Positions 13,266 to 56,816 of a stretch of DNA of 64,000 nucleotides are shown piece after piece. The DNA is taken from contig JBAQNJ010000001.1 of assembly GCA_049303675.1 (NCBI GenBank), positions 278,994 to 342,993 of the forward strand, in the 5' to 3' direction. Under the pieces are notes generated by a model. That model was not told the DNA's origin and did no database searches. It saw nothing but the letters and a program-made list of their open reading frames with translations. The position numbers were made by a program, and so were the translations under genes. This DNA comes from Microgenomates group bacterium (GTDB taxonomy: Bacteria; Patescibacteriota; Microgenomatia; UBA12405). Numbering within the stretch: position 1 is the first letter of the stretch; each line of letters starts with the position of its first letter.

Positions 13266-13296
13266 TGTAGACTGTTAACTGTTCACTGATAACTAT
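13266..13296. repeat. 14-mer repeat family copy (intergenic rpe-like/gap)
   Basis: tgtagactgttaactgttcactgataactat. Confidence 0.7.
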
Positions 13297-14327
13297 TTAC
13301 AAATGTACATAGCCATCTCTATCAACCGACATGAATAGCCGTATTCGTTATCGTACCATGCTCCAATACACACCATATCATCGGCCACTACATTGGTCAT
13401 TCGAGCATCGATAATACATGATCCATTGTTACCAATAATATCCGATGACACCAATGGTTCATAAGATACTTTCACTTTTCCCACTAGTTCTGGGCTCACG
13501 CTAGCCTCTTCGAAAATAGCGTTTACTTCTTCTATGGTTGTTTTTCGGACCATCTTAAAAGTTAAATCGGAATACGAGCCACAGACTACAGGAACTCGGA
13601 TGGCCGTCCCTGCAAACCTCCCTTTTGCCTCAGGATAAGCCGCAATTACCGCCTCCGCCGCCCCAGTGGCTGTCGGGACTATATTTATTGCCGCCGCTCT
13701 TGCTCGTCTTGGGTCTTTTCCCCCACCATCAACTATATTTTGATTGGTAGTATAGGCATGAATTGTTGTCAAAGATCCTTCTTGGAACCCAATTTTTTCA
13801 TCAATCAGTTTGACAATTGGTGCCACACAATTTGTGGTACATGAACCATTGGAAATTAATTCTTCCCCTTTATATCTATTTTCATTTACTCCCAGTATGA
13901 ATACTGGAATTTTTGGATCCTTAGCCGGCGCCGATAATACCACTTTCTTTGCTCCACCTCTAATATGCCCCAACGCTTTTGTGTCATTAAATGCCCCAGT
14001 GCACTCCAACACTACTTCAGCCCCATAATCACCCCAACGAATTTTACTCGGATCCGTTTCACCGAGTAAGGGAATTACTGTTTCCCCGACTGCCAATCTT
14101 CCCAATTCTCCGCCTTTTTGTGGATCAGCTGTTTCTACCTTCATCGGCATCCTGCCATATACCGAGTCATATTTAAATTGCATAGCATAGGCCTCCGCCG
14201 GCAAGTCTCCTTTAGTATTTATCGCCACTACTTCCACATTATATTTTTCCAGTAGTATCGCCCGTAGCACCACCGTTCCAATTCTCCCAAAACCATTAAT
14301 TCCAATTTTTATTTTTTTATTTTCCAT
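13293..14327 (-). CDS. gap: Glyceraldehyde-3-phosphate dehydrogenase
   Basis: IGINGFGRIGT...SNGSCTTNC active-site motif. Confidence 0.9.
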   Translation of the reverse strand: MENKKIKIGINGFGRIGTVVLRAILLEKYNVEVVAINTKGDLPAEAYAMQFKYDSVYGRMPMKVETADPQKGGELGRLAVGETVIPLLGETDPSKIRWGDYGAEVVLECTGAFNDTKALGHIRGGAKKVVLSAPAKDPKIPVFILGVNENRYKGEELISNGSCTTNCVAPIVKLIDEKIGFQEGSLTTIHAYTTNQNIVDGGGKDPRRARAAAINIVPTATGAAEAVIAAYPEAKGRFAGTAIRVPVVCGSYSDLTFKMVRKTTIEEVNAIFEEASVSPELVGKVKVSYEPLVSSDIIGNNGSCIIDARMTNVVADDMVCIGAWYDNEYGYSCRLIEMAMYICK

Positions 14328-14375
14328 AATTCAATTTTATACATAATTCTTAATACTTGATACTAAATACTTTTA

Positions 14376-15434
14376 TTATTCCCATGCTACTAATTTTCCT
14401 TTTGTCAACAGTTCCAACATCATTCCACCACCAGAAGCTATCAAATCAATTTTATCCTTCATTCCCAAATTCTCAATCGATGCAGTTGTATCACCACCAG
14501 CAATTATCTTATAAGCATTTGATTCAGCCACAGCGACAGCTATCTCTTCTGTCCCTTTTTTACAATCTTCTTTTTCGAACCATCCCATCGCTCCCGCCCA
14601 GACTATCATCTTTGATTCACTAATTACTTTTTTAAATTCTTCAATATCCTCCTCGCTCAAATCAAACGTGTCCTCCCTCAACTTAGCAATTTTTATTTTT
14701 CCACTATTCACTGTTAACTGTTCACTATTAACTAAAAGCGGTAATTTACCGCCAATAAGTATGTTATCAGCGATCTTGAGGATTTCAGCAATGTGGTCCA
14801 GTTTGTCTTCCTTTGCTCCCCCTAAAATAATGGTCAAGGGACTAGTCTTTTCCTCCACCACTTTCATTATTTTATTTACCTCTTCAATAAACGCCAGTCC
14901 ATAAAATCCAGGCATCTCTTTATACAACATGTTAGACCTTTCTCTTCGGTGGGACACCGCTAGGGCATCATTCACAAAAAATTGACAAATTTCCACCAAG
15001 TTTTTCAAAAAATCACTGTCATTATTTTCTTCACCCTTCCAAAAACGTAAATTTTCCAAAAACACAATCTGATTTTTAGATATCGCCATATCTAATTTTT
15101 CAAAATTACCCACATCTTCCACAAAAATACTCTCAATCATATTTTCGCCATTTGGTTCAAGTAGCGTCATCAACTCCAAGTAGACAGGTCTAAGTGATAA
15201 CTTTGGATCATAGCCATCAGGCTTGCCCGCCGTAGCCTTGGCGTAGGTGGGTCTACCTAGTTTTCCCACAATCACTATCTTACATTTTTTATCCATCAGT
15301 AACCTTATCGTTGGAATTGACTTAGACAACCTAGCATTGTCCCTCACCATCCCCTCCATCATAGGCACGTCCAAGTCTAGTTTTAGAATTACTTTTGTTT
15401 CTGGTAATATTTCCTCAACCGATCTCAGTTTCAT
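14376..15434 (-). CDS. pgk: Phosphoglycerate kinase
   Basis: KVILKLDLDVPM, GGGMMLELL; likely start MKLRSVEEIL (ORF track extends to 15530); contains in-frame 14-mer repeat insertion (VNSEQLTVNSG). Confidence 0.85.
   Translation of the reverse strand: MKLRSVEEILPETKVILKLDLDVPMMEGMVRDNARLSKSIPTIRLLMDKKCKIVIVGKLGRPTYAKATAGKPDGYDPKLSLRPVYLELMTLLEPNGENMIESIFVEDVGNFEKLDMAISKNQIVFLENLRFWKGEENNDSDFLKNLVEICQFFVNDALAVSHRRERSNMLYKEMPGFYGLAFIEEVNKIMKVVEEKTSPLTIILGGAKEDKLDHIAEILKIADNILIGGKLPLLVNSEQLTVNSGKIKIAKLREDTFDLSEEDIEEFKKVISESKMIVWAGAMGWFEKEDCKKGTEEIAVAVAESNAYKIIAGGDTTASIENLGMKDKIDLIASGGGMMLELLTKGKLVAWE
14702..14734. repeat. 14-mer repeat family copy, in-frame in pgk
   Basis: cactattcactgttaactgttcactattaact (minus strand encodes VNSEQLTVNSG). 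Confidence 0.75.
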
Positions 15435-19393: not shown

Positions 19394-19779
19394 ATTTTTT
19401 CGGAAAACATTAATACATAGCCACTATTGTCCTTCATTGAAAATTCTTTTGATCCGTAAAAGGTTGTATGTTTTTCAGCGACTATCTCAACTTTACCTTT
19501 TACCTTTTCATACAGCTCATCCAATCCTTCAAGCTCAATATATTGAACTACACTTCCACCAATACTTTTTGTCTTAAACTCGACAATTTCTTCTCCCATA
19601 CTTTCGGGAGTCATAAACATAAACCCAACTTCACTTTCTGGCCACATGACATTAGCCCACACTAGGTCGCCTTCCCCGACACTGTTGGTTAATTCAAAAC
19701 CCAATACACTAGTATAAAAGTCGACAGATTCTTTAATGTTCCTAACCACCAACTCTGGAGTTAATCTTTTTATTTTCAT
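19390..19779 (-). CDS. Glyoxalase/VOC-family protein
   Basis: ELVVRNIKESVDFYTSVLGFEL VOC signature. Confidence 0.7.
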   Translation of the reverse strand: MKIKRLTPELVVRNIKESVDFYTSVLGFELTNSVGEGDLVWANVMWPESEVGFMFMTPESMGEEIVEFKTKSIGGSVVQYIELEGLDELYEKVKGKVEIVAEKHTTFYGSKEFSMKDNSGYVLMFSEKI

Positions 19780-24119: not shown

Positions 24120-25617
24120 TGTACTAAGAGTTTGATCGTGGCTCAGGGTAAACGCTGGCGATGTGCCTAAGACATGCAAGTCGAACGGGATTCATTATCT
24201 TCACAAAGTTTCTAATTTTAGTGATTTTGTGAAGATAGTGAGTTTAGTGGCGAACGGGTGAGTAATGAGTACGAACGTACTCTCAAGCGGAACATAGCCC
24301 ACCGAAAGGTGGAGTAATTTTCCATAGTCTCGCAAGAGTAAAGATGCAAATCACTTGAGAAGCGGCGTACTTGCCACCAGCTAGTTGGTAGGGTAACGGC
24401 CTACCAAGGCTATAACGGCTAACGGCTCTTAGCGGAGAGTCCGTCACAATGGGACTGAGACACGGCCCATACTTCTACGGAAGGCAGCAGTTAGGAATCT
24501 TGCGCAATGGACGAAAGTCTGACGCAGCGACATCGCGTGAAGGATGAAGGCCCTCGGGTCGTAAACTTCTTTTATTGTGCCATGAAGGCATTTTGAATCA
24601 ACAGCTACTAACTACGTGCCAGCAGTCGCGGTAATACGTAGGCTGTAAGCGTTACCCGGTTTTATTGGGCGTAAAGCGTCTGTAGGTGGTTTTGTAAGTC
24701 TTGTTTCAAAGACCCCAGCTTAACTGGGGGCAGGGGCAGGATACTGCAAGACTAGAGTGATATCGGGGTTACTGGAATTTTTAGTGTAGGGGTAAAATCC
24801 GTGGATACTAAAAAGAACACCAAGCGCGAAGGCGGGTAACCAGGTATTTACTGACACTCAGAGACGAAAGCTAGGGTAGCCAATCAGATTAGAGACCTGA
24901 GTAGTCCTAGCTGTAAACTATGTATGTTAATTCTCTGTAATTTATTATGGGGGATGTAAGCTAACGCGTTAAACATACCGCCTGGGGAGTATAGCCGCAA
25001 GGCCGAAACTCAAACGAATTGGCGGGGAGGCGCACAACCAGTGGAGCATGTGGTTCAATTCGATACGAAGCGATGAACCTTACCTGGGTTTGAAATGTAT
25101 CTGCAAACCCCCAGAAACGGGGGAATCCTTAGAGGGTGATACACAGCTGTTGCATGGCTGTCGTCAGCTCGTGACGTGAGTTGTTCTCTTAAGTGAGGTA
25201 ACGAGCGCAACCCCCATCCGGTGTTATTGTGTCACCGGAGACTGCCTAGCATTATTTTGTTAGGAGGAAGGAGGGGACGACGTCAAGTCAGCATGATGCT
25301 TATGTCCAGGGCTACACACATCCTACAATGAGGAAGACAATGGGTCGCGAAACCGCGAGGTGGAGCCAATCCCACAAACTTCCTCTCAGTTGGGATTGCA
25401 GGCTGAAACTCGCCTGCATGAACCCGGAATTGGTAGTAATCGCGCATCAGCAGCGCGCGGTGAATACGTTCTCGCCTCTTGCACACACTGCCCGTCAAAT
25501 CAGCAAAGTTGAGGGCACCTGAAGCTTGGCCTTTGGCCGAATCAAGGTGAATTCAGCGATGAGGGTTAAGTCGTAACAAGGTATCTGTACTGGAAGGTGC
25601 AGATGGATCACCTCCTT
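24120..25617 (+). rRNA. rrs: 16S ribosomal RNA
   Basis: AGAGTTTGATCGTGGCTCAG at 24127; GTGCCAGCAGTCGCGGTAATAC; 3' end GGATCACCTCCTT at 25605-25617. Confidence 0.95.
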
Positions 25618-25721
25618 TGAGGATTTATCCGTATTCCAATTTATTGGATATCGGATCATGAATCGAACTCTTTCTGGTACTAACATTTTTGGCTTTAAAT
25701 AAAATAGTGGTTGAATAAAAT

Positions 25722-29525: not shown

Positions 29526-31226
29526 ATGATAAACTTACTAGTGATCCAAAAAATGCTTTTCTTTTTTACTTTTTACTTTTTACTTTTTACTTTCGTCCCC
29601 CATGTTTTTGCCGATATAAATGATGATATAGCGCAGCTTAGTAAACAAATTTCCGCCCTAGATGCTGCCATCGCCCCCCTCAAAAAAGAATCTACCGGAC
29701 TCTCCGCCAAAATTTCCTCAGCCAAAGCCACCATTCTCAAAACCGAAAAACAAATTACCGACCTTGGTGTCCGCCTGATTGACAAGGAGGCGGATCTCGA
29801 AGTCCAAAAAACTCTTCTCTCTTCTCGAGTTCGTCGTTATTACATCAACACCAAAAAATACAATCCACTCCTCATCTTTTTTGCCTCTACCGAGAGTACT
29901 TCTCTCCTCCGCCAATATTCTTGGTATCAATCAATTATTAGTACTGATCGCAATACCATTGTTGGCTATGTCAACGATATTAATTCTCTTAATCAAAATA
30001 AAATAAAATTAGAAGCTGAAAAAGTCAAATTGGCCGTCATCAAAAAAAATCTTGAATCCCGTTTTGGCTTTTTAGCCGGTGAAATCCAAAAAGCCGAGGC
30101 CTACAAAAATGAACTTAGCAAAAAACAGCAAGCCTTAATCGCCGAGAAAACCGCTATGTTCAACACCAGCGTTGGTGACGTCTCCTCATCCGACGATCCC
30201 GCCTCTAGATCCGATTATAATCCGGGGTTTTCCCCTGCTTTTGCTGTCTTTTCTTTTGGCGCCCCCCATCGTAAAGGTATGTCCCAATACGGTGCTTTTG
30301 GTCGATCCAAGGCAGGGCAATCCGCCGAAACCATTCTCAAGGCCTACTATGGCGATATTCGTCTCGAGAAAATGGACTCACCAGCTTCAATCCGCACCAC
30401 AGTTGGTATCCTTCCCTTCGAAGATAATTACTTAGTCGGTATCGCCGAAATGCCCGCTAGTTGGGGAGATTTAGGTGGCTATGAAGCACTCAAAGCTCAG
30501 GCCATTGCCGCTCGCACTTATGCCATCAATTCCACCAACAATTTATCCGGCACTATTTGTGTCACCGAGGCTTGTCAGGTCTACAGTCGTTCCCGACTCA
30601 ATTCACCGGGGCGCTGGCGTCAGGCAGTTATTGATACTCGGGGTATAGTTATCAAAAGCAACAAAACTGGCCGAGTTTTCTCCACCATGTATGCTTCGAC
30701 TTCTGGTGGGGCCATCACTTCATATTCCAGTTCCGATCACAGCACTCCTATGGTTTGGGATACCACTTGTGGCAGCCAGTCCTGCTGGCCATCTGGAGCC
30801 TACGAAAAATCAGCAGGTTCTTCGTGGTATTACAAGGGTTGGTACAAGACTCGTAGCAATGTCTCCGCCGGTCGATCTCATCCATGGTTAAATCAAGAGG
30901 AATTTTCCGACATTATCAATGCTATTATTTATTTTTCCAAAAACAAAGACTCTTCTCATTTATCTCAAATCCAAAATTGTCTCGGTTCCTGTGATTCAAA
31001 TGCGTGGTCTAGGGACGAACTTCGTAGGCAAGTAGGCAACGCCGTAAGTTCAGTCAACTCTGTCTCTGTTGACTATTCTACCGCTGGCTATACCCAAACC
31101 GTTCGAGTCAGTACCGACAAAGGTGATTTTAGCTTTAATGGCACAGACTTTAAAGAAATATTTACCCTCCGTGCCCCAGGTGCCCTGACTGCTAAATCCA
31201 GTCTCTTCAATATTGAGAAAAAATAA
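29526..31226 (+). CDS. SpoIID/LytB-domain cell-wall protein with N-terminal coiled coil
   Basis: APHRKGMSQYGAFGRSKAGQSAETILKAYYGD = SpoIID/LytB core; N-terminal signal/TM encoded by (acttttt)4 heptamer tract. Confidence 0.7.
   Translation: MINLLVIQKMLFFFTFYFLLFTFVPHVFADINDDIAQLSKQISALDAAIAPLKKESTGLSAKISSAKATILKTEKQITDLGVRLIDKEADLEVQKTLLSSRVRRYYINTKKYNPLLIFFASTESTSLLRQYSWYQSIISTDRNTIVGYVNDINSLNQNKIKLEAEKVKLAVIKKNLESRFGFLAGEIQKAEAYKNELSKKQQALIAEKTAMFNTSVGDVSSSDDPASRSDYNPGFSPAFAVFSFGAPHRKGMSQYGAFGRSKAGQSAETILKAYYGDIRLEKMDSPASIRTTVGILPFEDNYLVGIAEMPASWGDLGGYEALKAQAIAARTYAINSTNNLSGTICVTEACQVYSRSRLNSPGRWRQAVIDTRGIVIKSNKTGRVFSTMYASTSGGAITSYSSSDHSTPMVWDTTCGSQSCWPSGAYEKSAGSSWYYKGWYKTRSNVSAGRSHPWLNQEEFSDIINAIIYFSKNKDSSHLSQIQNCLGSCDSNAWSRDELRRQVGNAVSSVNSVSVDYSTAGYTQTVRVSTDKGDFSFNGTDFKEIFTLRAPGALTAKSSLFNIEKK
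29561..29597. repeat. Heptanucleotide tract (ACTTTTT)x4 + actttcgtc
   Basis: cttttttactttttactttttactttttactttcgtc inside 5' end of SpoIID gene. Confidence 0.8.
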
Positions 31227-31691: not shown

Positions 31692-32171
31692 TTGCTGGAA
31701 TTAGAGAAAAAATTGCCAAAAAACAATTTGCTAAATTATCAAATTGTTTATTTTCATCCCAAAACTTTTTTCAATAAATATATAAAAAGTTTTTGCACCC
31801 CTTCCCCCTTGTTAAAGGGGGATCGAGGGGGATTAATCATTGGTCTTGGCGATTTCTTTGGTGACATTACCAAAATCCGTCTCGAAACTATTACCCATAA
31901 TCAATATGCTCAAAACTCAATTTATCCATTTTCACCCATCAATTTAGATATTTCGCTGCCACCACTGGAAGATATTGACGAAAGAATCTTTACCGTTAGT
32001 GAACACATGGGCAAATACAATTGCAACTGGATTGTCTATTCTACCGAATTATATATCCGTCAACATGCCCCAGCCACAAAGCAATTATTTTTTCACCTGC
32101 CCCGTTCCCAAAATGCCACCATTTTAGCCTCTCAAATATACAATTTGCTCAATAATAATCAAATAATTTAG
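31692..32171 (+). CDS. Hypothetical protein (contains repeat copy in-frame; start uncertain)
   Basis: 159 aa ORF; hairpin repeat at 31804-31834 encodes SPLLKGDRGGL. Confidence 0.25.
   Translation: MLELEKKLPKNNLLNYQIVYFHPKTFFNKYIKSFCTPSPLLKGDRGGLIIGLGDFFGDITKIRLETITHNQYAQNSIYPFSPINLDISLPPLEDIDERIFTVSEHMGKYNCNWIVYSTELYIRQHAPATKQLFFHLPRSQNATILASQIYNLLNNNQII
31804..31834. repeat. Hairpin repeat family copy 1 (short form)
   Basis: cccccttgttaaagggggatcgagggggatt. Confidence 0.8.
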
Positions 32172-32175
32172 TGTT

Positions 32176-32218
32176 TTCCCCCTTTTCAAGGGGGAAGCGG
32201 CGTAGCCGAGGGGGTTTT
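32176..32218. repeat. Hairpin repeat family copy 2 (long form)
   Basis: ttcccccttttcaagggggaagcggcgtagccgagggggtttt, followed by ttataat 5 nt before ATG 32235. Confidence 0.8.
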
Positions 32219-32234
32219 GATGTTATAATTAACC

Positions 32235-33150: not shown

Positions 33151-33189
33151 CAAAGATTATCCCCCTCTTTCGTCAATATAGTTTGTACT

Positions 33190-33234
33190 TCTCCCTTTTT
33201 CAAGGGGAGATGCGGCGAAGCCGAGAGGGGTTTT
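33190..33234. repeat. Hairpin repeat family copy 3 (long form)
   Basis: tctccctttttcaaggggagatgcggcgaagccgagaggggtttt then tagtat 8 nt before ATG 33250. Confidence 0.8.
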
Positions 33235-33249
33235 GTAGTATCATTAATC

Positions 33250-36006: not shown

Positions 36007-36047
36007 ATCATTATTATATCAATAAAGCCCATAATATACAATGTTTT

Positions 36048-36089
36048 TCTCCCTTGTCATAGGGAGAAGCGGCTGTGCCGAGAGGGATT
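36048..36089. repeat. Hairpin repeat family copy 4 (long form)
   Basis: tctcccttgtcatagggagaagcggctgtgccgagagggatt. Confidence 0.8.
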
Positions 36090-36155
36090 GAAATATGAGA
36101 TAATCACTTAGTTTGTTTTATTCATAAATCATATTTCTTATTTCATACACCAACT

Positions 36156-39246: not shown

Positions 39247-39678
39247 AGGAGGAGATGCTCGGTATTGAGCCGAGGTCCAAAGTGGACTATAAAAAACGTC
39301 TACAAGCTTAATTTACTTTATCCTACACTTTCAACAACTAAAGTAAACGAAAAGTGTTGAAATGTCGATTATTGAGGGCATTACCCCTCTCTTAAATCCA
39401 CGATCTAATCGAGAAGATCGGGACAGCATTCTAGTTTAATTTACACTAGCTAGTCTTCTCTAGAAAAGGGGACTAACTAATGGATGATTCTGTTTAGGCA
39501 AGAGCCCAAACAGGAGCCTTAGAAGCTAGAGCGCCTTTTACAGCGTTTGCAACTTTGGTTAAATCAACACCAAAAGTATTTTTGGCATGTTTGTTTTTGA
39601 CCCTGTTTAACGACTCAATGGATCAAAGTCGGCTTGCGGTTTTTTAAGGTACTCACCTTGTCGATGCAATACATCTCC
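39247..39678 (-). ncRNA. ssrA: tmRNA (ssrA) candidate
   Basis: Minus strand: 5' GGAGATG-TATTGCATCGACAAGG (cf. GGAUUCGACGGG), internal tag ORF GCA AAC GCT ... TAA = ANAVKGALASKAPVWALA*, 3' GGAC-CTCGG-CTCAATA-CCGAG-CATCTCC (T-arm + acceptor strand complementary to 5' GGAGATG) then terminator; smpB 2.7 kb away. Confidence 0.55.
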
Positions 39679-43574: not shown

Positions 43575-43610
43575 AGTTTATTAAATTCTGTTAAATTATT
43601 AAATTTTATT
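43575..43610. repeat. 36-nt AT-rich repeat copy b
   Basis: agtttattaaattctgttaaattattaaattttatt at 3' end of SBP gene/upstream of tpiA. Confidence 0.75.
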
Positions 43611-45105
43611 TTATTCCATACTTCTGCCTCATTTGTTCGATCCCATTTCGGAGTGCTGGCATTACCTCTTCCATGGTCGCATTTTTGACCACAATTCCAT
43701 TAATTGCGTCCCCAAAATATTTACTCATTTCATCATTTAATCCCTCATCAAAAGTCCGCGAGGACAAATACCAGCCACTACTATTATTGGCCACCTTCGC
43801 AAAGGGTCGGGTCAGGGGATTGGACTCCATCTTTGTTGCCATACTTTTACGGGGATATATTTCCCCAAAGCTTCTAATTTGTGAGGCAGCAGTATACATT
43901 TTTTCTAGGCTTTCTTTGGTGGCTAGGAATGCCAAAAATTTCCAAGCTTCTTTTTGATATTTACTCTTGGCACTGACTCCTTCCGCCCAATAAGTCGACC
44001 AGTGAATATTGGTTAGGTTGGCCTCATTATTCACCTGATCCGGTGGCACATCTTTGAGTGTTGGTAGCTGGGGCACGGTGGTTATATCGTATCTTAGGCT
44101 GGGTATTTTCATTTCTTCTATATTAAATACCCGCCAGCTGGGGGCAAAATAAAAGGCCAACTTGCCATTGGCAAACAGTTCGGTCGAGCTCGGCAGTGCC
44201 TCATCCCAGACTTTATCTTTAGTTTTAAACAGAGTGTAATAAGTCAGTACATCTTGCATTTTTTTCTCACTTTCGGCATCCACGGCCAGCGGATCTACTC
44301 CGCCCTGTTTCATCATTAGTCCGACTATATCACTCCAATGATCCACATTATCCACTAGTCCCATGGCTGCTCCCGCCACTGTAATCTTGCCATTGGCATC
44401 TCGGACGGTCAGTTTATTGGCCGATTGTTCTAGGTCCCACCATGATTTGGGCAGGCTCACTCCCCCCGACTCCACCAAATCTTTGTTGTAAAACAGTGAC
44501 AATCCATCATACATTAGTGGTATCCCCAGCCAGCTCCCACTTATTTTTATGGTATTTTTATATCCCTCAAAAAAGTCGCTATCCAATCCCACTGTTGTCG
44601 ATATATCTGTTGGTACCTTGGCCAAGTCACCGGTAAACATCGGCAGCCAGCTACTGTGATATCTAAAAATATCTGGCGCATCAGTCTCTCCACCCTCAAT
44701 TCTAGTTTTTAGTCGAGTTCGGTAATTTACCTTTTGATTACGCACGTAATTAATTTTTATATTTGGGTTTTTCGATTCGTAGTCAGCAATTATTGCCTGT
44801 ATTGTCGCCGGTTCTTCCCATAGTCCCCAATAATTCAAAGTTATCACTGGTGTTTTTCCTCCTAGGTTAGGGATAATTACTTTGAATATCAAAAACAAAA
44901 TTAGTAGTATTAGTGCACCAATTCCCCCATAAATTAGGTATTTTTTAGTATCAATTGGCTTGGCCAGTGGCAGATTATTTGTTACCGTTATTTCCTCTTT
45001 CTGATCACTAATCACTGTTTTCTGTTCACTTATTTCGCTTTCATCCGCTAGGCTACTAAACCTCCGTGGTGGTAATGGTGATTTGATTTCTTCCTCAACA
45101 GGCAT
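43606..45105 (-). CDS. ABC transporter extracellular solute-binding protein (family 1, sugar-type) with N-terminal membrane anchor
   Basis: 499 aa; TM then domain with WGLWEEPATIQAIIADYE... typical SBP_bac_1 pattern. Confidence 0.65.
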   Translation of the reverse strand: MPVEEEIKSPLPPRRFSSLADESEISEQKTVISDQKEEITVTNNLPLAKPIDTKKYLIYGGIGALILLILFLIFKVIIPNLGGKTPVITLNYWGLWEEPATIQAIIADYESKNPNIKINYVRNQKVNYRTRLKTRIEGGETDAPDIFRYHSSWLPMFTGDLAKVPTDISTTVGLDSDFFEGYKNTIKISGSWLGIPLMYDGLSLFYNKDLVESGGVSLPKSWWDLEQSANKLTVRDANGKITVAGAAMGLVDNVDHWSDIVGLMMKQGGVDPLAVDAESEKKMQDVLTYYTLFKTKDKVWDEALPSSTELFANGKLAFYFAPSWRVFNIEEMKIPSLRYDITTVPQLPTLKDVPPDQVNNEANLTNIHWSTYWAEGVSAKSKYQKEAWKFLAFLATKESLEKMYTAASQIRSFGEIYPRKSMATKMESNPLTRPFAKVANNSSGWYLSSRTFDEGLNDEMSKYFGDAINGIVVKNATMEEVMPALRNGIEQMRQKYGIK

Positions 45106-46455: not shown

Positions 46456-46589
46456 AAAATCTTGCATTCTATTTTTAGTTTCGCTATTATTCTTAGAGTG
46501 TTTAGAAGACCCTTAGGGGTTGACAACCGAGTCCGCCAAATGGTCCACGGTGCCCACTAAAACACGCCTTATCAATTAAAAGGAAAAAT

Positions 46590-47690
46590 ATGAATTATCC
46601 TCAATTTTCGTCCGAATCTGTCTGTGAAGGTCACCCCGACAAAGTCTGTGACCAAATTAGTGATGCTATCTTAGACGCTGCCTATACCCTCGACCCTATG
46701 GCTCGGGTCGCTATCGAGACTTTGGCTACGGTCAACAAATTAGTTTTAGCCGGAGAAGTTACTATTAATGGTACTCTCGATTATGCCGCTATTGCCCGCC
46801 AAAAGATCGCCGAGCTCGATTTTCTCGATTCAGTTTTAGATTTTACCGACAAATGCGACATCGAAATTGCTGTCCACACACAGTCACCCGATATTGCTCA
46901 GGGCGTCAATGCTGGTGGAGCCGGTGATCAGGGGATGATGTTTGGTTATGCTTGTCGCGAGACACCCGAACTAATGCCCCTTCCCATTTCCATGGCTCAC
47001 AAATTATGCCGTCAAATGGACGAATTACAGCGCATTCATCGTTGGATGCGCCCCGATGGCAAGTCTCAGGTTACCGTTCGTTATGATGGTCAGACTCCGG
47101 TAGCCATCGAGCGAGTTGTCTTGGCCAAGCCCATGAATTACGACCTCGCCCCTGCTGATTATTCTCACTTTTTCTATCAAAATGTCATTGTTCCAGTCTT
47201 AGCTGAATACAAGTTTGAAATCAGTGAAGACAAAATGATTCTCAATGGTACCGGTAAATGGACCATTGGTGGCCCCTCCGCCGATACTGGCGTTACTGGC
47301 CGCAAAATTGTCGTTGATACTTACGGTGGTATGGGTCGTATTGGTGGTGGTTGCTTTTCCGGCAAGGATACTACCAAGGTCGATCGCAGTGCCGCCTACG
47401 CCGCTCGCTATATTGCCAAAAATATTGTGGCTGCAGGTCTCGCCGATCGCTGCGAGGTTCAATTAGCCTATGCTATTGGTCAAGTCCTGCCTGTTGGTCA
47501 ATCTATTGAGACTTTTGGCACTGCCAAGTCAGAATTAAAGGTAATCGAAGATTTTGCATGGAAATTACTCGAATTATCGGTCGCTGGTATCAACAGTGGT
47601 CTCAATCTCCGCGTGCCAATGTATGCCAAAACCGCCCGCTATGGCCACTTTGGCCATCCCGAGTATCCATGGGAGAAGATAAAAGGCTAA
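46590..47690 (+). CDS. metK: S-adenosylmethionine synthetase
   Basis: FSSESVCEGHPDKVCDQISDAILDA; GGGCFSGKDTTKVDRSAAYAARYIAKN. Confidence 0.9.
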   Translation: MNYPQFSSESVCEGHPDKVCDQISDAILDAAYTLDPMARVAIETLATVNKLVLAGEVTINGTLDYAAIARQKIAELDFLDSVLDFTDKCDIEIAVHTQSPDIAQGVNAGGAGDQGMMFGYACRETPELMPLPISMAHKLCRQMDELQRIHRWMRPDGKSQVTVRYDGQTPVAIERVVLAKPMNYDLAPADYSHFFYQNVIVPVLAEYKFEISEDKMILNGTGKWTIGGPSADTGVTGRKIVVDTYGGMGRIGGGCFSGKDTTKVDRSAAYAARYIAKNIVAAGLADRCEVQLAYAIGQVLPVGQSIETFGTAKSELKVIEDFAWKLLELSVAGINSGLNLRVPMYAKTARYGHFGHPEYPWEKIKG

Positions 47691-48436: not shown

Positions 48437-50217
48437 TGAATAATAATCTATATAAAAATAGTACTTTCCCCCTTTTTCAAGGGGGGATTAAGGGGGGTTT
48501 TGTATTAAAAACTTTTTTTTACTTTTTACTTTTTACTTTTGTTTTTATTTTAATTTTTACTCTCCCTCTTATTTTCGGTTTTGGCAAAACCGGCAAAAAC
48601 ACTCTTGTTTTAGGCAAAGACTATTCCTTACTCTCCAAATCCCAAATAATTTCTCGCTTATCAGTCGATTTTCCTCTTCCTCCCAGCCTGAATATTCAGA
48701 CCTCAAACCGCAAATTTACTCTCAATTTAGCCGATATCTCCGCCCAATACGACTATCCCTCAATCGCATCCAATCTACTATTCCGTCGACTTCATAGTGG
48801 AGTTTTACCTTATTTTAAGGCATTTTTTCAGCCAAAAAACTTTAGCCTTAGTCTCGATTACAGCTCCGATTCACTCGATAAACAAATTGCCAATATCTCC
48901 CAGCAGGTCGATCATCCCTTTGTTCCCTCCCAATTTAGTCTCGATGAGAAATCCAAAGAAATCATCCTCAAAAACGGTGAACGGGGGCAAAGAGTCAATT
49001 CTGAAGAATTGAAAAACCGTCTCGTCTCTGCTCTTCGTTATTATGAGGCATCTACCCCTATCGACCTTCCCCTCGACCCTATTGGTGAGTTGCCCACTAC
49101 TGATCAAATTAGTAGTGCCACCGCTGTCGCTCAGTCCCTTATCGGCAAGAAGCTCGAATTTTCCGCCCCCGACGAGGTTGTCACCCTCGACGACAAGACC
49201 CTTATTTCTTGGGTCGACTTTGGGACCATTTGTCGCCGCTCCACAGTTGATGATTATGTCGCTGGACTGAAGTCTAGTCTGAAAAAGGATCCTGTCGAAG
49301 CCGTCTTCAAATTTGAAAATGGTCAAGTCCTCGAATTTCAACCATCTAAAAATGGTTATCTATTAGATGACTCCAATTTAAGCCAACAAATTTGTTCAAA
49401 AATAGTTGAACTATCCCAATCCTCGGACAAAATAATTAAGGATAAATTCCCAGTTATCACCCTCGAAACCAAGACTCAAAACTCTGATGTCAACAATTTA
49501 GGCATCAAAGAATTAATTGGCAGTGGCACCTCTACCTTCCGTCACAGTAGTACTATTCGCAATATCAATGTCGAGCGCGGCGCCCAAATAGTCAATCGCA
49601 TTTTAGTCGCCCCAGGCGAAAAGTTTTCCTTTGTCAAAGCTCTTGGCGATGTCACCATCGAAAATGGTTTCAAAATGGCTTATGTCATTCGGGCCGGCAA
49701 GACGGAATTAGACGTTGGTGGTGGTATCTGTCAGGTCTCCACCACTTTTTTCCGCGCCCTTCTCAATTCTGGGCTCGATATAATTGACAGACGCAACCAC
49801 GCCTATCGAGTCCAATACTATGAAGAAGACATGCCCCCAGGTTATGACGCCACTGTTTTTATCCCCAGTCCTGATTTATCTTTTGTCAACGACACTGGCC
49901 ATCATATCCTTATTCAAAGTAAATATGATGGTAAAAATAAACGGCTTACCTACGATCTTTATGGTACCTCCGATGGTCGATCTGTCGATATTAGCAACTA
50001 TCGCCAATGGGGAGCTGCTCCTGCTCCTCCGGCGGTCTATATTGACGATCCTACCTTACCGGCGGGCAAAGTCGTTCAGGACGAGCACGCTATTCCAGGA
50101 CTGAAGACATCTTTTGACTGGAAAGTGACCCGAGCCGGAGAGATAATCCATCAGAAAACCTTTACCAGCAATTTCGTCCCTTGGGCCGCCGTTTTCCGTC
50201 GCGGACCGCAAATTTAA
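48436..50217 (+). CDS. VanW-family protein with N-terminal TM
   Basis: GGGICQVSTTFFRALLNSGLDIIDRRNHAYRVQYY...GYDATVF VanW core; N-terminus carries hairpin repeat copy 6 and heptamer tract in-frame. Confidence 0.7.
   Translation: MNNNLYKNSTFPLFQGGIKGGFVLKTFFYFLLFTFVFILIFTLPLIFGFGKTGKNTLVLGKDYSLLSKSQIISRLSVDFPLPPSLNIQTSNRKFTLNLADISAQYDYPSIASNLLFRRLHSGVLPYFKAFFQPKNFSLSLDYSSDSLDKQIANISQQVDHPFVPSQFSLDEKSKEIILKNGERGQRVNSEELKNRLVSALRYYEASTPIDLPLDPIGELPTTDQISSATAVAQSLIGKKLEFSAPDEVVTLDDKTLISWVDFGTICRRSTVDDYVAGLKSSLKKDPVEAVFKFENGQVLEFQPSKNGYLLDDSNLSQQICSKIVELSQSSDKIIKDKFPVITLETKTQNSDVNNLGIKELIGSGTSTFRHSSTIRNINVERGAQIVNRILVAPGEKFSFVKALGDVTIENGFKMAYVIRAGKTELDVGGGICQVSTTFFRALLNSGLDIIDRRNHAYRVQYYEEDMPPGYDATVFIPSPDLSFVNDTGHHILIQSKYDGKNKRLTYDLYGTSDGRSVDISNYRQWGAAPAPPAVYIDDPTLPAGKVVQDEHAIPGLKTSFDWKVTRAGEIIHQKTFTSNFVPWAAVFRRGPQI
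48465..48501. repeat. Hairpin repeat family copy 6 (short form), in-frame in VanW N-terminus
   Basis: tttccccctttttcaaggggggattaaggggggtttt encodes FPLFQGGIKGGF. Confidence 0.8.
48511..48541. repeat. Heptanucleotide tract actttttttt(actttttx2)acttttg
   Basis: encodes FFYFLLFTF of VanW signal/TM. Confidence 0.75.
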
Positions 50218-51780: not shown

Positions 51781-52884
51781 CTAAAAGTTTAATCGTGGAT
51801 CACGGTCCAGAGTCTCGGGATCCGACCATTCTTTTCGCTTCGCCAATTCCCAGCCCACTCTTCCAATCATGGCCGCATTATCGGTATTTAGCCATATTTT
51901 CGCTGGCATATAAATTAGCAATTTCTTTTTTCTGGCTAGGGCTCTCAGTTTTTTTCGAAGCATCATATTGGCCAGTACCCCTCCCGAGGCCATTATAGTT
52001 TTTGGCTCATATTTATCAATCGCCAAATCAAATTTTCTAATCAAAGTATTGAATACCGACTCTTGAAATGTTGCCGCCAGACTAGCCAAATTTTTATTTT
52101 TTTCCTCTATTGACCAGTCTTTTATTTTATAATAAAAACTAGTTTTCAGTCCCGAAAAGCTATAGTCCAACACTTTTTTATCGGCGAGCGGTTTGGGTAA
52201 TTCAAACAAATTATTATTGGCGCCAGCTTGCATCGCCAGTCGCTCTATCACCGGCCCCCCAGGGTATCCCAAACCCAGTAATTTTGCCGCCTTATCCAAC
52301 GCTTCTCCCGCCGCATCATCCAACGTTTCCCCCACTACAGTATATTTTTGTAAGGGCGTACCCTTGTGGTCGCCCTTTTCCAAAAGTACAATCTTCGTAT
52401 GTCCTCCACTTACCGTCAGGCAAATAGCTGGCAGCTCTATCTCTCTCTCTGGCAATCCTTTACTATTTTTGACGAGGTTAGACAATATATGTCCCTCCAC
52501 ATGATTCACCGCCACCAATTTTTTATTATATTTTATCGCCAATTCACAGGCAGTTTTCACCCCTACTCCTAGAGCAATCGCCAGCCCCGGCCCTTTCGTC
52601 ACTGCAATTACATCAACAGACTTCATGTAATATTCCAATGTCTTTCTCTCCCTTGTCAAAGGGAGATGCCCCGAAGGGGAGAGGGATTGAGAACGTTTCA
52701 ATGCCGTCATTATCACCGGCAAAATTCTCGCTTGATGTGCTCTTTTCGCAATATCCGGTACCACCCCACCCCAATCTTTATGCAAATCAGTTTGCGAGGA
52801 AATTACATTACTTATCACTCGATCATTTTCCAGCACTGCCGCACAGGTATCATCACAGCTGGTTTCAATCGCCAATATTTTCAT
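51781..52884 (-). CDS. tsaD: tRNA N6-adenosine threonylcarbamoyltransferase TsaD
   Basis: MKILAIETSCDDTCAAVLE...VTKGPGLAIALGVGV...VNHVEGHIL; carries in-frame hairpin repeat copy 7 (LPLTRERK). Confidence 0.9.
   Translation of the reverse strand: MKILAIETSCDDTCAAVLENDRVISNVISSQTDLHKDWGGVVPDIAKRAHQARILPVIMTALKRSQSLSPSGHLPLTRERKTLEYYMKSVDVIAVTKGPGLAIALGVGVKTACELAIKYNKKLVAVNHVEGHILSNLVKNSKGLPEREIELPAICLTVSGGHTKIVLLEKGDHKGTPLQKYTVVGETLDDAAGEALDKAAKLLGLGYPGGPVIERLAMQAGANNNLFELPKPLADKKVLDYSFSGLKTSFYYKIKDWSIEEKNKNLASLAATFQESVFNTLIRKFDLAIDKYEPKTIMASGGVLANMMLRKKLRALARKKKLLIYMPAKIWLNTDNAAMIGRVGWELAKRKEWSDPETLDRDPRLNF
52645..52688. repeat. Hairpin repeat family copy 7 (long form, inner hairpin CCCCGAAGGGG), in-frame in tsaD
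   Basis: tctctcccttgtcaaagggagatgccccgaaggggagagggatt. Confidence 0.8.
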
Positions 52885-54136: not shown

Positions 54137-54159
54137 TATGTATTATATATAATTCGAAG

Positions 54160-54194
54160 TCCCCCTTGTTAAAGGGGGATTTAGGTGGATTAGG
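54160..54194. repeat. Hairpin repeat family copy 8 (short form)
   Basis: tcccccttgttaaagggggatttaggtggattagg between divergent PHP and lemA. Confidence 0.75.
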
Positions 54195-54208
54195 TGTTAT
54201 TATAAAGT

Positions 54209-54769
54209 ATGAACAAAACACTTATCTCTATTGTTGCCATTCTTGTTTTTCTCGGTCTGGTTCTCGCCGGAGTCTACAACAATCTTATCTCTCTAAATCA
54301 AAAAGTTGACCTTGCTTGGGCTCAGGTTGATACTCAGTATCAGCGTCGTTTTGACCTCATTCCCAATTTAGTCTCATCAGTCCAAGGCGAGATGAAACAG
54401 GAGCAGAAAATATTCTCCGACATTGCTACCGCTCGGACTCAATATTCCGGTGCTGCCTCGGTCAATGACAAAGCCACTGCCGCCACAGCCTTAGAGGGGA
54501 CTTTGGGCAGATTATTAGTTATTATGGAAAATTATCCCGTTCTAAAATCCAACGAAAATGTCACTCGACTTATGGATGAATTGGCTGGTACCGAAAATCG
54601 TATCAGTGTCGAGCGCTCTCGTTTCAACAATCAGGTTACTACCTACAACATGGTAGTAATTCGATTCCCTGGCAATCTTCTCGCTCGACTTTTTGGCTTT
54701 AGTTCACGAGCATTTTTTCAAAGTGCCAGTGGCGCCGATGTTGCCCCACGAGTGGAAATTAATCCCTAA
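54209..54769 (+). CDS. lemA: LemA-family protein
   Basis: TM then NNLISLNQKVDLAWAQVDTQYQRRFDLIPNLV. Confidence 0.8.
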   Translation: MNKTLISIVAILVFLGLVLAGVYNNLISLNQKVDLAWAQVDTQYQRRFDLIPNLVSSVQGEMKQEQKIFSDIATARTQYSGAASVNDKATAATALEGTLGRLLVIMENYPVLKSNENVTRLMDELAGTENRISVERSRFNNQVTTYNMVVIRFPGNLLARLFGFSSRAFFQSASGADVAPRVEINP

Positions 54770-54772
54770 TTC

Positions 54773-55615
54773 ATGAGAACAATTTGGCTTAGCTTTCTTT
54801 TCTTTATTTTTTCACTTTCGCAGGTCTTTGCTCAAAATATTCCCAATCCCACGAGCTATGTTAATGATTACGCCAATGTTTTATCTGATCAGTTTGAAGC
54901 CCAATTAGACCAGCAAATATCCGATTTTCAAAAGAAAACTTCTATTGAAATCGCAGTAGTCACGGTTGCCTCCCTCGATGGCACCACTGTCGATGATTAT
55001 GCGGTCAAGTTGTTTGAGAAATGGGGCATTGGTCAGGCCAAAAAAGATAATGGCTTATTATTTCTAATTGCCCCAAATGAAAAAAAAGTCCGCCTTGAAG
55101 TCGGTTATGGCTTGGAAGGCACTATCACCGATGGTCGTGCTGGAAATATTCTGGACACTCAGGTACTGCCAGAATTCAAAAAAAATGATTATGAAGCCGG
55201 AGTCAAAAACGGTGTCGATGTGCTAATTTCTTACCTCAATGATCCTTCCTCTATCCCCGCCACCACTTCTGATTTACCATCAGAGTCTACCATCACTTGG
55301 CTAATGATAATTTTATTTTCCGGTCTGCCAATTTATTTTCTGTCCTATCTTAGCCGCTCTCGGGAAATCACTACTGGCGCTATTGTCGGAGGTCTTATTG
55401 GTTACTTAATATACGGCTTTATTTTTGCCATTATTTTGGGTATTTTTGGACTAATACTTGACCTAATTCTCTCTCGCAATTACAAAAAATTTACCTCGAT
55501 GGGACTATCGACTAGTTTTTGGAAAAGTCGTGGTGGTTTTGGCGGTGGGGGAGGTGGATTTGGAGGTTTTGGTGGAGGGGGTAGTGGCGGCGGCGGCTCG
55601 TCGAGAGGTTGGTAG
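54773..55615 (+). CDS. TPM-domain (YgcG-like) protein with Gly-rich C-terminus
   Basis: VNDYANVLSDQFEAQLDQQISDFQKKTSIEIAVVTVASLDG; C-terminal GGFGGGGGGFGGFGGGGSGGGG. Confidence 0.75.
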   Translation: MRTIWLSFLFFIFSLSQVFAQNIPNPTSYVNDYANVLSDQFEAQLDQQISDFQKKTSIEIAVVTVASLDGTTVDDYAVKLFEKWGIGQAKKDNGLLFLIAPNEKKVRLEVGYGLEGTITDGRAGNILDTQVLPEFKKNDYEAGVKNGVDVLISYLNDPSSIPATTSDLPSESTITWLMIILFSGLPIYFLSYLSRSREITTGAIVGGLIGYLIYGFIFAIILGIFGLILDLILSRNYKKFTSMGLSTSFWKSRGGFGGGGGGFGGFGGGGSGGGGSSRGW

Positions 55616-55727
55616 CGCTAGTGTCATTCCCGCGCCGTGTCAGTCTGTAGCTTTAGCGTAGGATGATAGGTGGGAATCTATTAAATTTATTTGTCCTATT
55701 CATAAATCTTAAATCGTATATCTTAAA

Positions 55728-56816
55728 TCAAAAATTTATCTCCCGTGTCGTCTCATCCACATAGCTAAAATTAATCGGTATATAGTTAGTTATTTTTTTT
55801 AATTTATTTAGGTATTCTTCACCCATATTTTCCGGCCACTCAATACAGGCAACTAGCTCTGAGCTTGTCGAAGGGAATTGTTCCAAAAATTTTATTTCCT
55901 CAAATTCATATTTATTTCCCAATCTATACAAATCAAAATGTAAAAATTTCTTGCACTGATAACTGTTCACTGATAACTGTTCACTGATTAAATATTCATT
56001 ATAAATTACAAACGTCGGGCTAGTTATTTTTTCCTTTACCCCGAGTAGTTGTCCTATCTTTCGGGAAAATACAGTCTTTCCACAACCTAGGTCTCCGCTC
56101 AATCCAAACACTAGAGGTTTTCTCTCCCTTGTTAAAGGGAGAAGCGGCGTAGCCGAGAGGGATTTGTTCAACAAAAATTCAGCAATTTTCTCCGTTTCCT
56201 TTTCCGATTTAGAAATTAGTGTTTGGGATTTCCCCACTATCAAGTCTCCCCGTCTGAGGATTTTTATCTCCGGTTCAGTGGCGTCAATTACTGTCGATGG
56301 TTTGTTCCGTGGTAATTTACCACTGTCCACCATCATATCGATCATCATCAATTTTTTCTGGGACAGAGTTTTTACAAAGCTTGCCAGTGAATAGTGGGGA
56401 GTCCGTCCCGACAGATTCGCTGACGTCGCCGTCACTGGCCCTCCCACCGCCTTCACCAGATCCATTATCCATTGGTTATCCGGTATTCGTATTCCCAATG
56501 TCCCATTTTCCGCCTCTATACCCTTGGCCACCTTATGTTTGCCCTCCGACACAATCGTAAAAGGTCCGGGTAGCAAGTTTGCATAAATATTTTCTGCATT
56601 TTCACTCAGTTTTACAAAATCTTGTGCCATTTTTTTATCTGCTACAGCTATCGATATCGCCTTCCCCGTCCATCTGTTTTTAAATGCGAGAAGTTTATCT
56701 GTTGCGCTCTGGCTTCTCGGATCTACCGCCAAAATGTACACCGTATCACTCGGGAATATTACTAGCCCACCATCTTTTATTATTCTGGCCGCCTTTTCAA
56801 TATCCTCGACTTTCAT
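55728..56816 (-). CDS. Fused TsaC/Sua5 (YrdC domain) and TsaE (P-loop) protein
   Basis: N: GGLVIFPSDTVYILAVDP...; C: SEKETEKIAEFLL...GDLGCGKTVFSRKIG...SPTFVIYNEY...HFDLYRL; carries hairpin copy 9 and 14-mer repeat in-frame in TsaE part. Confidence 0.75.
   Translation of the reverse strand: MKVEDIEKAARIIKDGGLVIFPSDTVYILAVDPRSQSATDKLLAFKNRWTGKAISIAVADKKMAQDFVKLSENAENIYANLLPGPFTIVSEGKHKVAKGIEAENGTLGIRIPDNQWIMDLVKAVGGPVTATSANLSGRTPHYSLASFVKTLSQKKLMMIDMMVDSGKLPRNKPSTVIDATEPEIKILRRGDLIVGKSQTLISKSEKETEKIAEFLLNKSLSATPLLPLTRERKPLVFGLSGDLGCGKTVFSRKIGQLLGVKEKITSPTFVIYNEYLISEQLSVNSYQCKKFLHFDLYRLGNKYEFEEIKFLEQFPSTSSELVACIEWPENMGEEYLNKLKKITNYIPINFSYVDETTREINF
55954..55989. repeat. 14-mer tandem repeat (aactgttcactgat)x2.5
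   Basis: cactgataactgttcactgataactgttcactgatt encodes ISEQLSVNSYQ. Confidence 0.8.
56121..56165. repeat. Hairpin repeat family copy 9 (long form), in-frame in TsaE domain
   Basis: tctctcccttgttaaagggagaagcggcgtagccgagagggattt encodes (minus) SLSATPLLPLTRERK. Confidence 0.8.

Follow-up and report, generated by a model that had tools for sequence, protein, structure and literature searches.

Our analysis of a 64,000-nucleotide stretch of DNA from a Microgenomates group bacterium (contig JBAQNJ010000001.1; the whole stretch is called the window below) showed that it contains four arrays of five 7-nt units, all in a single orientation: one within pgk, one within the tsaE part of a tsaC(sua5)-tsaE fusion gene, one in the spacer between gap and rpe, and a decayed one near the N-terminus of a further open reading frame (ORF). 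A first-pass annotation, made from the sequence alone, had reported that the same nucleotide repeat encodes a nearly identical peptide in two unrelated essential enzymes, and this was confirmed (PGK ...GGKLPLLVNSEQLTVNSGKIKIAKL...; TsaC-TsaE ...NEYLISEQLSVNSYQCKKFLHFDLYRL...). We favour, with a probability of roughly 0.55, the explanation that the arrays are members of a dispersed heptanucleotide simple sequence repeat (SSR) family of the TAACTGA kind, which would have been seeded by block copying, changed by slippage and filtered by selection to permissive sites, without a shared function.

The period of the repeat is 7 nt, and each array consists of five units (35 nt), whose form is YAGTKAW in gene sense and TAACTGT/TCACTGA on the + strand. 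The + strand units found were TAACTGT, TCACTGA, TAACTGA(T) and TAACTAT, and all the genes concerned lie on the - strand (Table 1). At the three loci reported by the first-pass annotation the sequence is as it was described and stands up to shuffle tests. The unit, however, is not 14 nt as proposed there but 7 nt, a heptamer of the known TAACTGA family. Nor are these its only sites, for the window has a further locus with the repeat, and other Shapirobacteria have related arrays.

The exact 14-mer AACTGTTCACTGAT is located at 13277, 55961 and 55975, with a copy bearing two mismatches at 14716. These four matches compare with 0.45 expected, and none of 100 shuffles reached four. Tandem Repeats Finder gave 2.1 copies with 81% matches for A1 (13265-13294), 2.3 copies with 83% matches for A2 (14703-14734) and 2.5 copies with 100% matches for A4 (55954-55988), and reported period 7 besides period 14 at all three. 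Three of the four arrays are imperfect tracts (71-83% matches) and only A4 is perfect. A degenerate test for two consecutive ACTRWTN heptamers resulted in 11 matches against 0.23 expected, all on the + strand; 10 fall at A1, A2 and A4, and the other one, at 45007, lies within A3. The decayed A3 was recognised through its ortholog in the related locus L123 (12500-12534; CAGTGAA CAGTGAA CAGTTAA CAGTGAA TAGTGAA, peptide VNSEQLTVNSEK), whose array is well preserved. A scan with position weights, aimed at decayed arrays, gave about one match per shuffle at the threshold; because of this noise it was used only together with orthology. No further arrays were found in the 17.5 kb added by walking outward from the window. 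The arrays are direct repeats in which no palindrome, self-complementarity or terminal inverted repeats were found. No target duplication is visible at the four loci, and the array ends fade into related heptamers. All arrays measure 35 nt, which hints at a block, although 35 is not a multiple of 3.

Direct repeats of TAACTGA have been described in Beggiatoaceae, Cyanobacteria and five Bacteroidetes (MacGregor 2015, Front Microbiol 6:1397, PMC4679880). Their forward orientation has stop codons in all frames, while the ORF-internal copies are 'reverse' and encode LSVISYQ; TAACTGT and TCACTGA, listed in Table 3 of that work as single-base variants with the reverse translations QLTVNS- and SVISDQ-, are the two heptamers which alternate in the window (PMC4679880). 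Like the TAACTGA repeats, those of the window are 7-nt units in short head-to-tail arrays (2-6 units there, sometimes with related heptamers in between; five consecutive units here) without predicted RNA structure, and the ORF-internal copies are reverse-oriented and encode LSVISYQ-like peptides. The fold z-scores of three arrays were +0.59, +0.38 and -1.26, no better than those of shuffled sequences, and a role in RNA structure was therefore dropped.

There are also differences. The host belongs to the Candidate Phyla Radiation (CPR; Microgenomates/Shapirobacteria), a group not reported in MacGregor 2015, and the units of the window are two intermixed variants instead of TAACTGA alone. In Beggiatoaceae the repeats are mostly intergenic and forward and end a few nt before the start codon, whereas here three of the four arrays are coding and the intergenic one is reverse with respect to rpe; other taxa, e.g. 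Microcystis, also depart from the start-codon-proximal forward pattern (PMC4679880). Moreover, whereas coding TAACTGA copies lie at protein ends or in hypothetical proteins, those of the window are found inside the catalytic domains of essential enzymes (PGK segment, TsaE beta-hairpin).

A scan of the GTDB species-representative genomes for the gene-sense 17-mer AGTGAACAGTTAWCAGT found at least 120 loci with exact matches. Among the matches listed, 78 of 120 loci are cyanobacterial, and the other taxa include Chloroflexota/Anaerolineae, Bacteroidota, Calditrichia, Vulcanimicrobiota, Thiotrichaceae, Candidatus Parabeggiatoa, Thermodesulfobacteriota and Treponema; no CPR genome is among the matches listed. 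These matches sit in long tandem CAGTGAA/CAGTTAT/CAGTTAA arrays, often followed by an inverted array, so that the pairs are able to form long hairpins. The exact 17-mer matches place the window arrays in one sequence family with those of Cyanobacteria, Beggiatoaceae and Bacteroidetes, a membership that does not distinguish descent from convergence. The cyanobacterial STRR heptanucleotide repeats, reportedly described by Mazel et al. in 1990, are said to include STRR1 (CCCCAGT) and STRR3 (CAACAGT), which share the CAGT core. As in STRR repeats, of which three tandem heptanucleotides are known from Calothrix PCC 7601 (PMC4692102), the window has tandem 7-nt units of several families dispersed at many loci, and its 17-mer occurs in many Nostocales and Rivularia arrays among the matches listed. 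Cyanobacteria have long arrays that lie mostly between genes and often form inverted, hairpin-capable pairs, whereas those of the window have five units, stand singly and are coding in three of four cases. The CAGTGAA/CAGTTAT arrays (L001-L120) extend beyond the taxa listed by MacGregor 2015 (PMC4679880). The 17-mer was also found in 10 IMG/VR viral contigs (L209-L218), one of them with a long array (19 matches), but these viral contigs yielded neither the 25-mer nor the GC-rich element treated below, and no clear viral vector emerged.

The peptide common to PGK and TsaE follows from the reading frames. In forward orientation, on the strand opposite to gene sense, the repeat was computed to have stops in every frame, two per 14 codons. 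The frame of a tandem 14-mer repeats every 42 nt, and the three gene-sense frames yield one cyclic 14-residue peptide, ISEQLSVNSYQ*TV, in shifted phases. Because this is the only stop-free reading, a coding copy must be reverse-oriented and must encode a stretch of ISEQLSVNSYQ*TV. The coding copies are indeed all reverse-oriented, with the peptides QLSVNSYQ, EQLTVNS and EQKTVISDQ, and the tsaE array uses the longest open stretch, ISEQLSVNSYQ, its next codon being TGC in place of the consensus TGA stop. Since the frames give one cyclic peptide, the likeness of PGK and TsaE needs neither a shared function nor a single insertion event. The idea that a shared insertion event is required was thus not upheld, frame logic being sufficient, and the shared peptide is mainly a by-product of the sole stop-free way to read the repeat.

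The loop of TsaE in which A4 lies was compared in an alignment of 38 TsaC-TsaE homologs and in the DNA of 75 further metagenome loci. Between NEY and (K)FLHFDLY this loop is hypervariable across Shapirobacteria, with three states in the 75 relatives. The first, found in many genomes, is a minimal loop of 5-11 residues. The second consists of heptamer arrays with lineage-specific units, namely AATTTCC (L158), AATTACG/AATTACA (L129, L184), AAGTYGA (L140, L151) and GATCGTC (L139), as well as eight units of CAGTTAY/GAGTTAC in L122, which belong to the same family as A4. The third, which is commoner still, is a GC-rich hairpin sequence with peptides such as ISPNPSLTRGE, TLTPxPFPLTGQGEK or NPSKSPFDKGD; in the loops of L162, L164 and L177 (38 residues) two GC-rich elements are present in tandem.

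The CAGT array is absent from the closest relatives of the window TsaC-TsaE (77-80% identity), which have a 5-residue loop or unrelated repeats in place of the segment in enzymes that are otherwise conserved. The window TsaE has nine additional residues (eqlsvnsyq) in the alignment with H. influenzae HI0065 (1FL9/1HTW), and the minimal loops of its close relatives in Shapirobacteria are shorter than its own by about 10 residues. In the AlphaFold2 model the segment is placed between the strands E272-276 and E290-295, with confidence lower than in its surroundings. The alignment, the relatives and the model bear out the first-pass view of this segment as a true extra loop, and we infer that A4 is a young expansion of the beta-hairpin loop.

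In PGK the segment after the GGKLP motif is likewise hypervariable across Shapirobacteria. In relatives at 68-79% protein identity the segment is orthologous and equal or almost equal in length, but its DNA has diverged. The array of L203 (TAATAGT GAAGAGT TAATAGT TAAAAGT) is about 83% identical to A2, further orthologous diverged arrays are found in L204 and in L121/L205 (TACTAAT-type units), and in L206 the GC-rich element takes the place of the heptamer array. These orthologous copies show that the array in PGK was not inserted recently; the sharing of the segment with divergent DNA is what the first-pass annotation itself had named as speaking against its claim. The segment is locally only four residues longer than in T. 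maritima PGK, and the region around it is much shorter than in canonical PGK. According to AlphaFold2 it forms short helices (H231-234 and H237-243 in P0001 numbering; pLDDT 73-76) and not a floppy loop. The PGK array is thus old and partly decayed, and as a vertically inherited segment it would have been kept as a short helix. The PGKs of Shapirobacteria are shortened (about 340-352 amino acids): about 40-45 residues of the canonical C-domain region are missing from the stretch that runs from the GG(A/K) motif to the DIGP-equivalent segment. In the window PGK a 10-residue insertion, TYAKATAGKP, also follows GKLGRP; among 29 aligned sequences only P0034 has a counterpart (NYGETTTDKP) at this position.

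The intergenic array A1 fills the spacer (36 to about 44 nt) between the gap stop codon and the rpe start codon, and the TAG formed by the first three bases of its unit 1 is the gap stop itself. Since gap and rpe overlap in the relatives L203 and L204 (ATGCAAATAA), the spacer of the window is an insertion; L121 has a longer spacer, made of different AT-rich heptamers. At orthologous sites, therefore, the TsaE loop and the gap-rpe junction are without the array in close relatives, while the PGK array is shared by descent. An origin of A1 by duplication of the overlapping gap/rpe junction was considered, with an alignment that was suggestive but too short to support it. Of two AT-rich heptamer arrays observed beside the enzyme genes, one lies in the gap-pgk spacer (14339-14372, ATACTTA-like), while the other overlaps the stop codon of tsaCE and continues directly downstream (55703-55729, TAAATCT-like); heptamers therefore also make up the intergenic spacers next to both enzymes.

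Among the tandem repeats of the window, and likewise of related Shapirobacteria, those with period 7 or a multiple of it predominate. Exact-match runs (at least 10 positions) in the window number 7, 4 and 2 for periods 7, 14 and 21, while each of the other periods from 2 to 30 has at most 2 and shuffled sequences give about 0.1-0.2. Period 7 also leads in 610 kb of Shapirobacteria loci, with 42 runs, followed by 15 (period 15), 14 (period 14) and 13 (period 6). This agrees with the survey of Mrazek, Guo and Shah (2007, PNAS), which, as cited by Rehm et al. 2015 (PMC4692102), found heptameric SSRs to be over-represented generally in prokaryotes and offered a slippage hypothesis; unlike that statistical survey, whose repeats are given there as mostly intergenic, the window shows in-frame arrays in essential genes and one unit family at several sites. 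The other period-7 arrays of the window also lie mostly inside ORFs. Those of the TTTTTAC family encode nearly the same peptide, FFYFLLFTF, in N-terminal hydrophobic segments of two unrelated proteins, and a reverse reading in a third gives the Lys/Ser-rich KSKVKSKKSK. The TTTTTAC/TTTTGAC, GTTTCTT, TTTTGTG and other non-CAGT arrays are all T-rich on the + strand, and an AAAAGTA unit (TTTTTAC family) is also present in L123.

Orthologous arrays differ in the number and sequence of their units, and the same unit recurs within a genome. The orthologous TsaE loops have five units in the window and eight in L122, a difference of three units which keeps the frame. Adjacent units change together, as in L140 and L151 (AAGTCGA x2 vs AAGTAGA x2) or L129 and L184 (AATTACG vs AATTACA x3), and such joint changes would be expected from slippage-driven turnover. 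One unit is reused at two or more sites in each of the window, L121, L122, L129, L139 and L178: at four loci in the window, in the PGK segment and the spacer upstream of cutA in L121, in the tsaCE linker and loop in L122 and L129, and in the TsaE loop and a site kilobases away in L139 and L178. In addition, an exact 25-mer that includes an off-consensus TAGTG unit is common to the PGK array of the window and a non-orthologous array of L123; it was absent from 217 other loci (120 of them rich in CAGT arrays) and from IMG/VR. Taken together, these observations suggest that pre-formed blocks have been copied from site to site or homogenised.

The arrays occur only where additional sequence is tolerated, that is in an intergenic spacer, at a protein N-terminus and in the lineage-hypervariable PGK and TsaE segments. 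The explanation that we favour is that pre-formed blocks would be copied into such permissive sites and seed arrays there, either when existing arrays recombine or undergo gene conversion with one another or by some other insertion route. Replication slippage in whole-unit steps, together with point mutation, would then change the arrays, and within ORFs net multiples of 3 nt would survive. Point mutation would purge stops, and selection would filter only for an open reading frame and a tolerable structure, so that the peptide may be shared without a common function and the arrays may otherwise be neutral.

Several points weigh against this explanation. The window-level counts cover the 64 kb and 17.5 kb of flanking DNA, i.e. 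81.5 kb of a 998-kb genome, and these 81.5 kb showed neither terminal repeats nor target duplications nor a mobilising enzyme by which a five-unit block would reach distant sites. Because even the closest relatives of PGK and TsaC-TsaE reach no more than about 80% identity, ongoing 7-nt length polymorphism was not directly visible. Given the ORF constraint on unit order, part of the similarity between sites, including the 25-mer, could be convergent. Nor does the explanation account for the identity of the window units with those of distant phyla. Finally, the hydrophobic pattern conserved across relatives and the predicted helix suggest that the PGK segment is no longer mere filler.

A purely local origin, in which each array arose independently by polymerase slippage in situ on a chance 7-nt seed and the likeness came from sequence bias and ORF constraint, is unlikely. 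Heptameric SSRs are over-represented in many prokaryotes and polymerase-footprint slippage has been proposed for them (Mrazek 2007 as cited in PMC4692102), the window and its relatives contain many unrelated heptamer units, and the possible unit orders are limited, ORF constraints alone forcing the order GAA/TTA/GAA. However, the intergenic A1 is free of such constraint and yet has the same GAA/TTA alternation, and the same composite unit order is found at four sites up to 42 kb apart, with exact identities of 17-18 nt between loci. The reuse by several genomes of their own unit, and the 25-mer with its off-consensus unit at non-orthologous sites of two genomes, also argue against an independent origin.

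A selected function, either as an mRNA binding site for a post-transcriptional regulator or as a SEQL(S/T)VNS protein module (interaction or oligomerisation) recruited into both enzymes, is rather improbable. A1 ends so close to the rpe start codon (Table 1) that a regulatory site might be imagined, the more so as no Shine-Dalgarno sequence is evident; most TAACTGA sets lie just upstream of start codons, and binding by a post-transcriptional regulator was proposed for them (MacGregor 2015, PMC4679880). The amphipathic, hydrophobic pattern of the PGK segment, which is conserved across relatives and modelled as a helix, would suit a protein module. But the orientation here is the reverse of the start-codon-proximal 'forward' one of Beggiatoaceae, gap and rpe simply overlap in L203 and L204, and the arrays are without RNA structure. 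The peptide, moreover, is dictated by frame logic, and the TsaE of the closest relatives is conserved without it.

A contingency (phase-variation) switch, by which gain or loss of a unit would frameshift pgk or tsaE off and on, is very improbable. The arrays do resemble the phase-variable SSR loci of Haemophilus and Neisseria, a classic architecture with tandem units of a non-multiple of 3 inside ORFs and slippage as the mutational process (background in PMC4692102, PMC4679880). They differ from them in that the genes serve core metabolism and tRNA modification, not surface or restriction-modification functions, in that the arrays are mid-gene and imperfect in three of four cases, which imperfection suppresses slippage, and in that orthologs differ by three units and keep the frame; nothing pointed to on/off switching. 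No observation spoke for chance similarity or for an assembly artefact, and both can practically be dismissed, being refuted by the shuffle tests, the intact ORFs with Pfam matches on both sides of each array, the identical proteins recorded from two assemblies (NCBI and Logan) and the related arrays at the same sites in independent metagenomes.

Far more abundant than the heptamer arrays is a dispersed GC-rich element of about 45 nt with two hairpins, and this strand-locked element is a more novel lead than the arrays. It has a C-rich box besides the hairpins and reads, in 'C-first' orientation, AAAWCCCYCT, then a small variable hairpin, e.g. CGGC-TAC-GCCG, GTCC-TTCG-GAC or CCCC-TTCG-GGG, and then a larger hairpin, ATCTCCCTTT-GACA-AAGGGAGA, which is also written TCTCCCTTT-GACA-AAGGGAGA. 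One pair of the small hairpin shows compensatory changes (GC 15, CG 9, UG 5). At least nine copies were found in the window and about 70 by a simple pattern in 718 kb, and many are present in L123-L206. The element has no Rfam match at gathering thresholds (nor have the heptamer arrays) and no exact match in IMG/VR, and no description of it was found in the literature. The hairpin loop TTGACA was considered as a -35 box and rejected, the spacing to TATAAT in one locus being only 13 nt and the orientation to genes inconsistent.

In the window the element is present in frame in the TsaC-TsaE linker (SLSATPLLPLTRERK) and in TsaD (SLSPSGHLPLTRERK), where it is part of a 16-residue insertion relative to T. 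maritima TsaD (6NAK_B); here, for the second time, a single repeat supplies the same peptide to two enzymes. Relatives carry it in frame in the TsaE loop and in the PGK segment, and the element-encoded QNPSPASRDLPLT is common to two PGKs with an overall identity of 60%. In L177 a subfamily with the hairpin CAGTCC-TAC-GGACAG is found in the TsaE loop and again in the linker of that gene, which suggests that element subfamilies spread, or are homogenised, within a genome.

All 47 oriented copies have the orientation of tsaCE, 24 of them being sense in ORFs, 7 antisense in ORFs and 16 intergenic. GC skew on the tsaCE-sense strand averages +0.19 and is positive in 46 of the 47 loci that measure at least 5 kb. 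The single orientation and the G-rich tsaCE strand therefore tie the orientation of the element to the chromosome strand and not to transcription. In the window (1-64000) the GC skew is -0.20 and the AT skew -0.09 on the + strand, uniform across genes of both orientations, a strong asymmetry that resembles the chromosome-wide skew of other Microgenomates (Kadnikov et al. 2020, PMC7143001).

Repeated DNA in frame inside essential genes, adding a similar peptide to unrelated proteins, recalls the Rickettsia palindromic elements (RPE; named in PMC1779305) that Ogata et al. reportedly described in Science in 2000, and which are said to lie in frame in essential genes at surface-exposed, tolerated positions. 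Unlike RPE, which are palindromic and about 100-150 bp long, the window arrays are 35-nt tandem heptamers without a palindrome; the GC-rich double-hairpin element is the closer analogue, about three times smaller. In our literature search neither heptamer repeats nor palindromic repeats in frame were found to have been connected with CPR in any paper.

A broader reading, which we regard as tentative and on balance doubtful, is that Shapirobacteria have an active, strand-specific process at the DNA level by which short repeats, specific to each genome, are written again and again into the same permissive sites of core proteins. It would involve two classes, the five-unit heptamer arrays and the GC-rich double-hairpin element of about 45 nt, at the PGK segment, the TsaE beta-hairpin, the TsaC-TsaE linker, TsaD and intergenic spacers. 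Both classes would be reused within a genome as subfamily-specific copies, with the hairpin element strand-locked. By analogy, the process may possibly be a miniature counterpart of RPE, mobilised via single-stranded DNA at the replication fork. If so, repeat insertion would regularly provide the essential enzymes of ultra-small genomes with new peptide segments, and very small genomes would use, or suffer, short repeats as a steady supply of such segments.

The heptamer family, its reverse-only coding and its peptides are already known; what is new is the host phylum, the position in catalytic domains and the recurrent turnover at fixed hot spots. Our results extend TAACTGA/STRR-type heptamer repeats to the CPR and to the interior of essential enzymes, and the frame logic offers a simple reason for the same peptide in unrelated proteins. 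At the hot spots (TsaE hairpin, PGK linker and gap-rpe junction) the gain, loss and turnover of repeats can be traced across many metagenomic genomes, which makes the origin and spread of heptamer repeats directly testable. For annotation, they are a warning that "insertions" in CPR core proteins can be repeat-derived.

Table 1. Heptamer arrays, genes, further period-7 arrays and copies of the GC-rich element in the window (units of A1-A4 in gene sense; element coordinates approximate, + strand).
Feature	Position	Strand	Units	Remarks
Array A1	13261-13295	-	TAGTTAT CAGTGAA CAGTTAA CAGTCTA CAGAATA	gap-rpe spacer
Array A2	14700-14734	-	TAGTTAA TAGTGAA CAGTTAA CAGTGAA TAGTGGA	within pgk; encodes (L)LVNSEQLTVNSG(K)
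Array A3 (decayed)	44997-45031	-	AAGTGAA CAGAAAA CAGTGAT TAGTGAT CAGAAAG	N-terminal variable region of ORF 43606..45105; encodes EISEQKTVISDQKE
Array A4	55952-55986 (periodicity to 55988)	-	CAGTGAA CAGTTAT CAGTGAA CAGTTAT CAGTGCA, AT in front	TsaE domain; encodes (L)ISEQLSVNSYQC(K)
rpe (ribulose-phosphate 3-epimerase)	12648..13256	-		Pfam PF00834; start 5 nt downstream of last unit of A1
gap (GAPDH)	13293..14327	-		Pfam Gp_dh_N, Gp_dh_C; stop codon within A1
pgk	14376..15434	-		annotated 352 amino acids (P0001); longest ORF to 15530; Pfam PF00162
499-amino-acid ORF	43606..45105	-		A3 near N-terminus
tsaC(sua5)-tsaE fusion	55728..56816	-		362 amino acids; Pfam PF01300 + PF02367 (Sua5_yciO_yrdC + TsaE); 100% match to P0121
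Period-7 array	4906-4941		TTTTTAC/TTTTGAC family
Period-7 array	29563-29593		TTTTTAC/TTTTGAC family
Period-7 array	48516-48540		TTTTTAC/TTTTGAC family
Period-7 array	7412-7436		GTTTCTT
Period-7 array	8088-8113		TTTTGTG
Period-7 array	5362-5402
Period-7 array	10837-10860
Period-7 array	19492-19508
GC-rich element	31797-31856
GC-rich element	32170-32230
GC-rich element	33183-33243
GC-rich element	36035-36095
GC-rich element	48462-48519
GC-rich element	52642-52699
GC-rich element	54140-54200
GC-rich element	56118-56175

The gene identities given by the first-pass annotation (PGK, Sua5_yciO_yrdC + TsaE, GAPDH and Rpe) agree with the Pfam matches. PGK is a 100% match to P0001, 'MAG: phosphoglycerate kinase [Microgenomates group bacterium]', and the protein which TsaC-TsaE matches at 100% likewise bears the name of a Microgenomates group bacterium; the host is a Microgenomates/Shapirobacteria metagenome-assembled genome (MAG), and the relatives of PGK and TsaC-TsaE are Candidatus Shapirobacteria. 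The TsaC(Sua5)-TsaE fusion (55728-56816 in the window) is one protein throughout Shapirobacteria. The tsaD gene (51781-52884) lies about 3 kb from tsaCE in the window and adjoins the fusion gene in L122 (3001-5213); all three t6A domains bear repeat-derived segments in the window. At Rfam gathering thresholds the only matches in the window were a full-length 16S rRNA gene (24120-25618), a tmRNA (39247-39678), two tRNAs and a SAM-I/IV riboswitch (46493-46599), which lies upstream of the ORF 46590..47690 and scores exactly at the gathering threshold.

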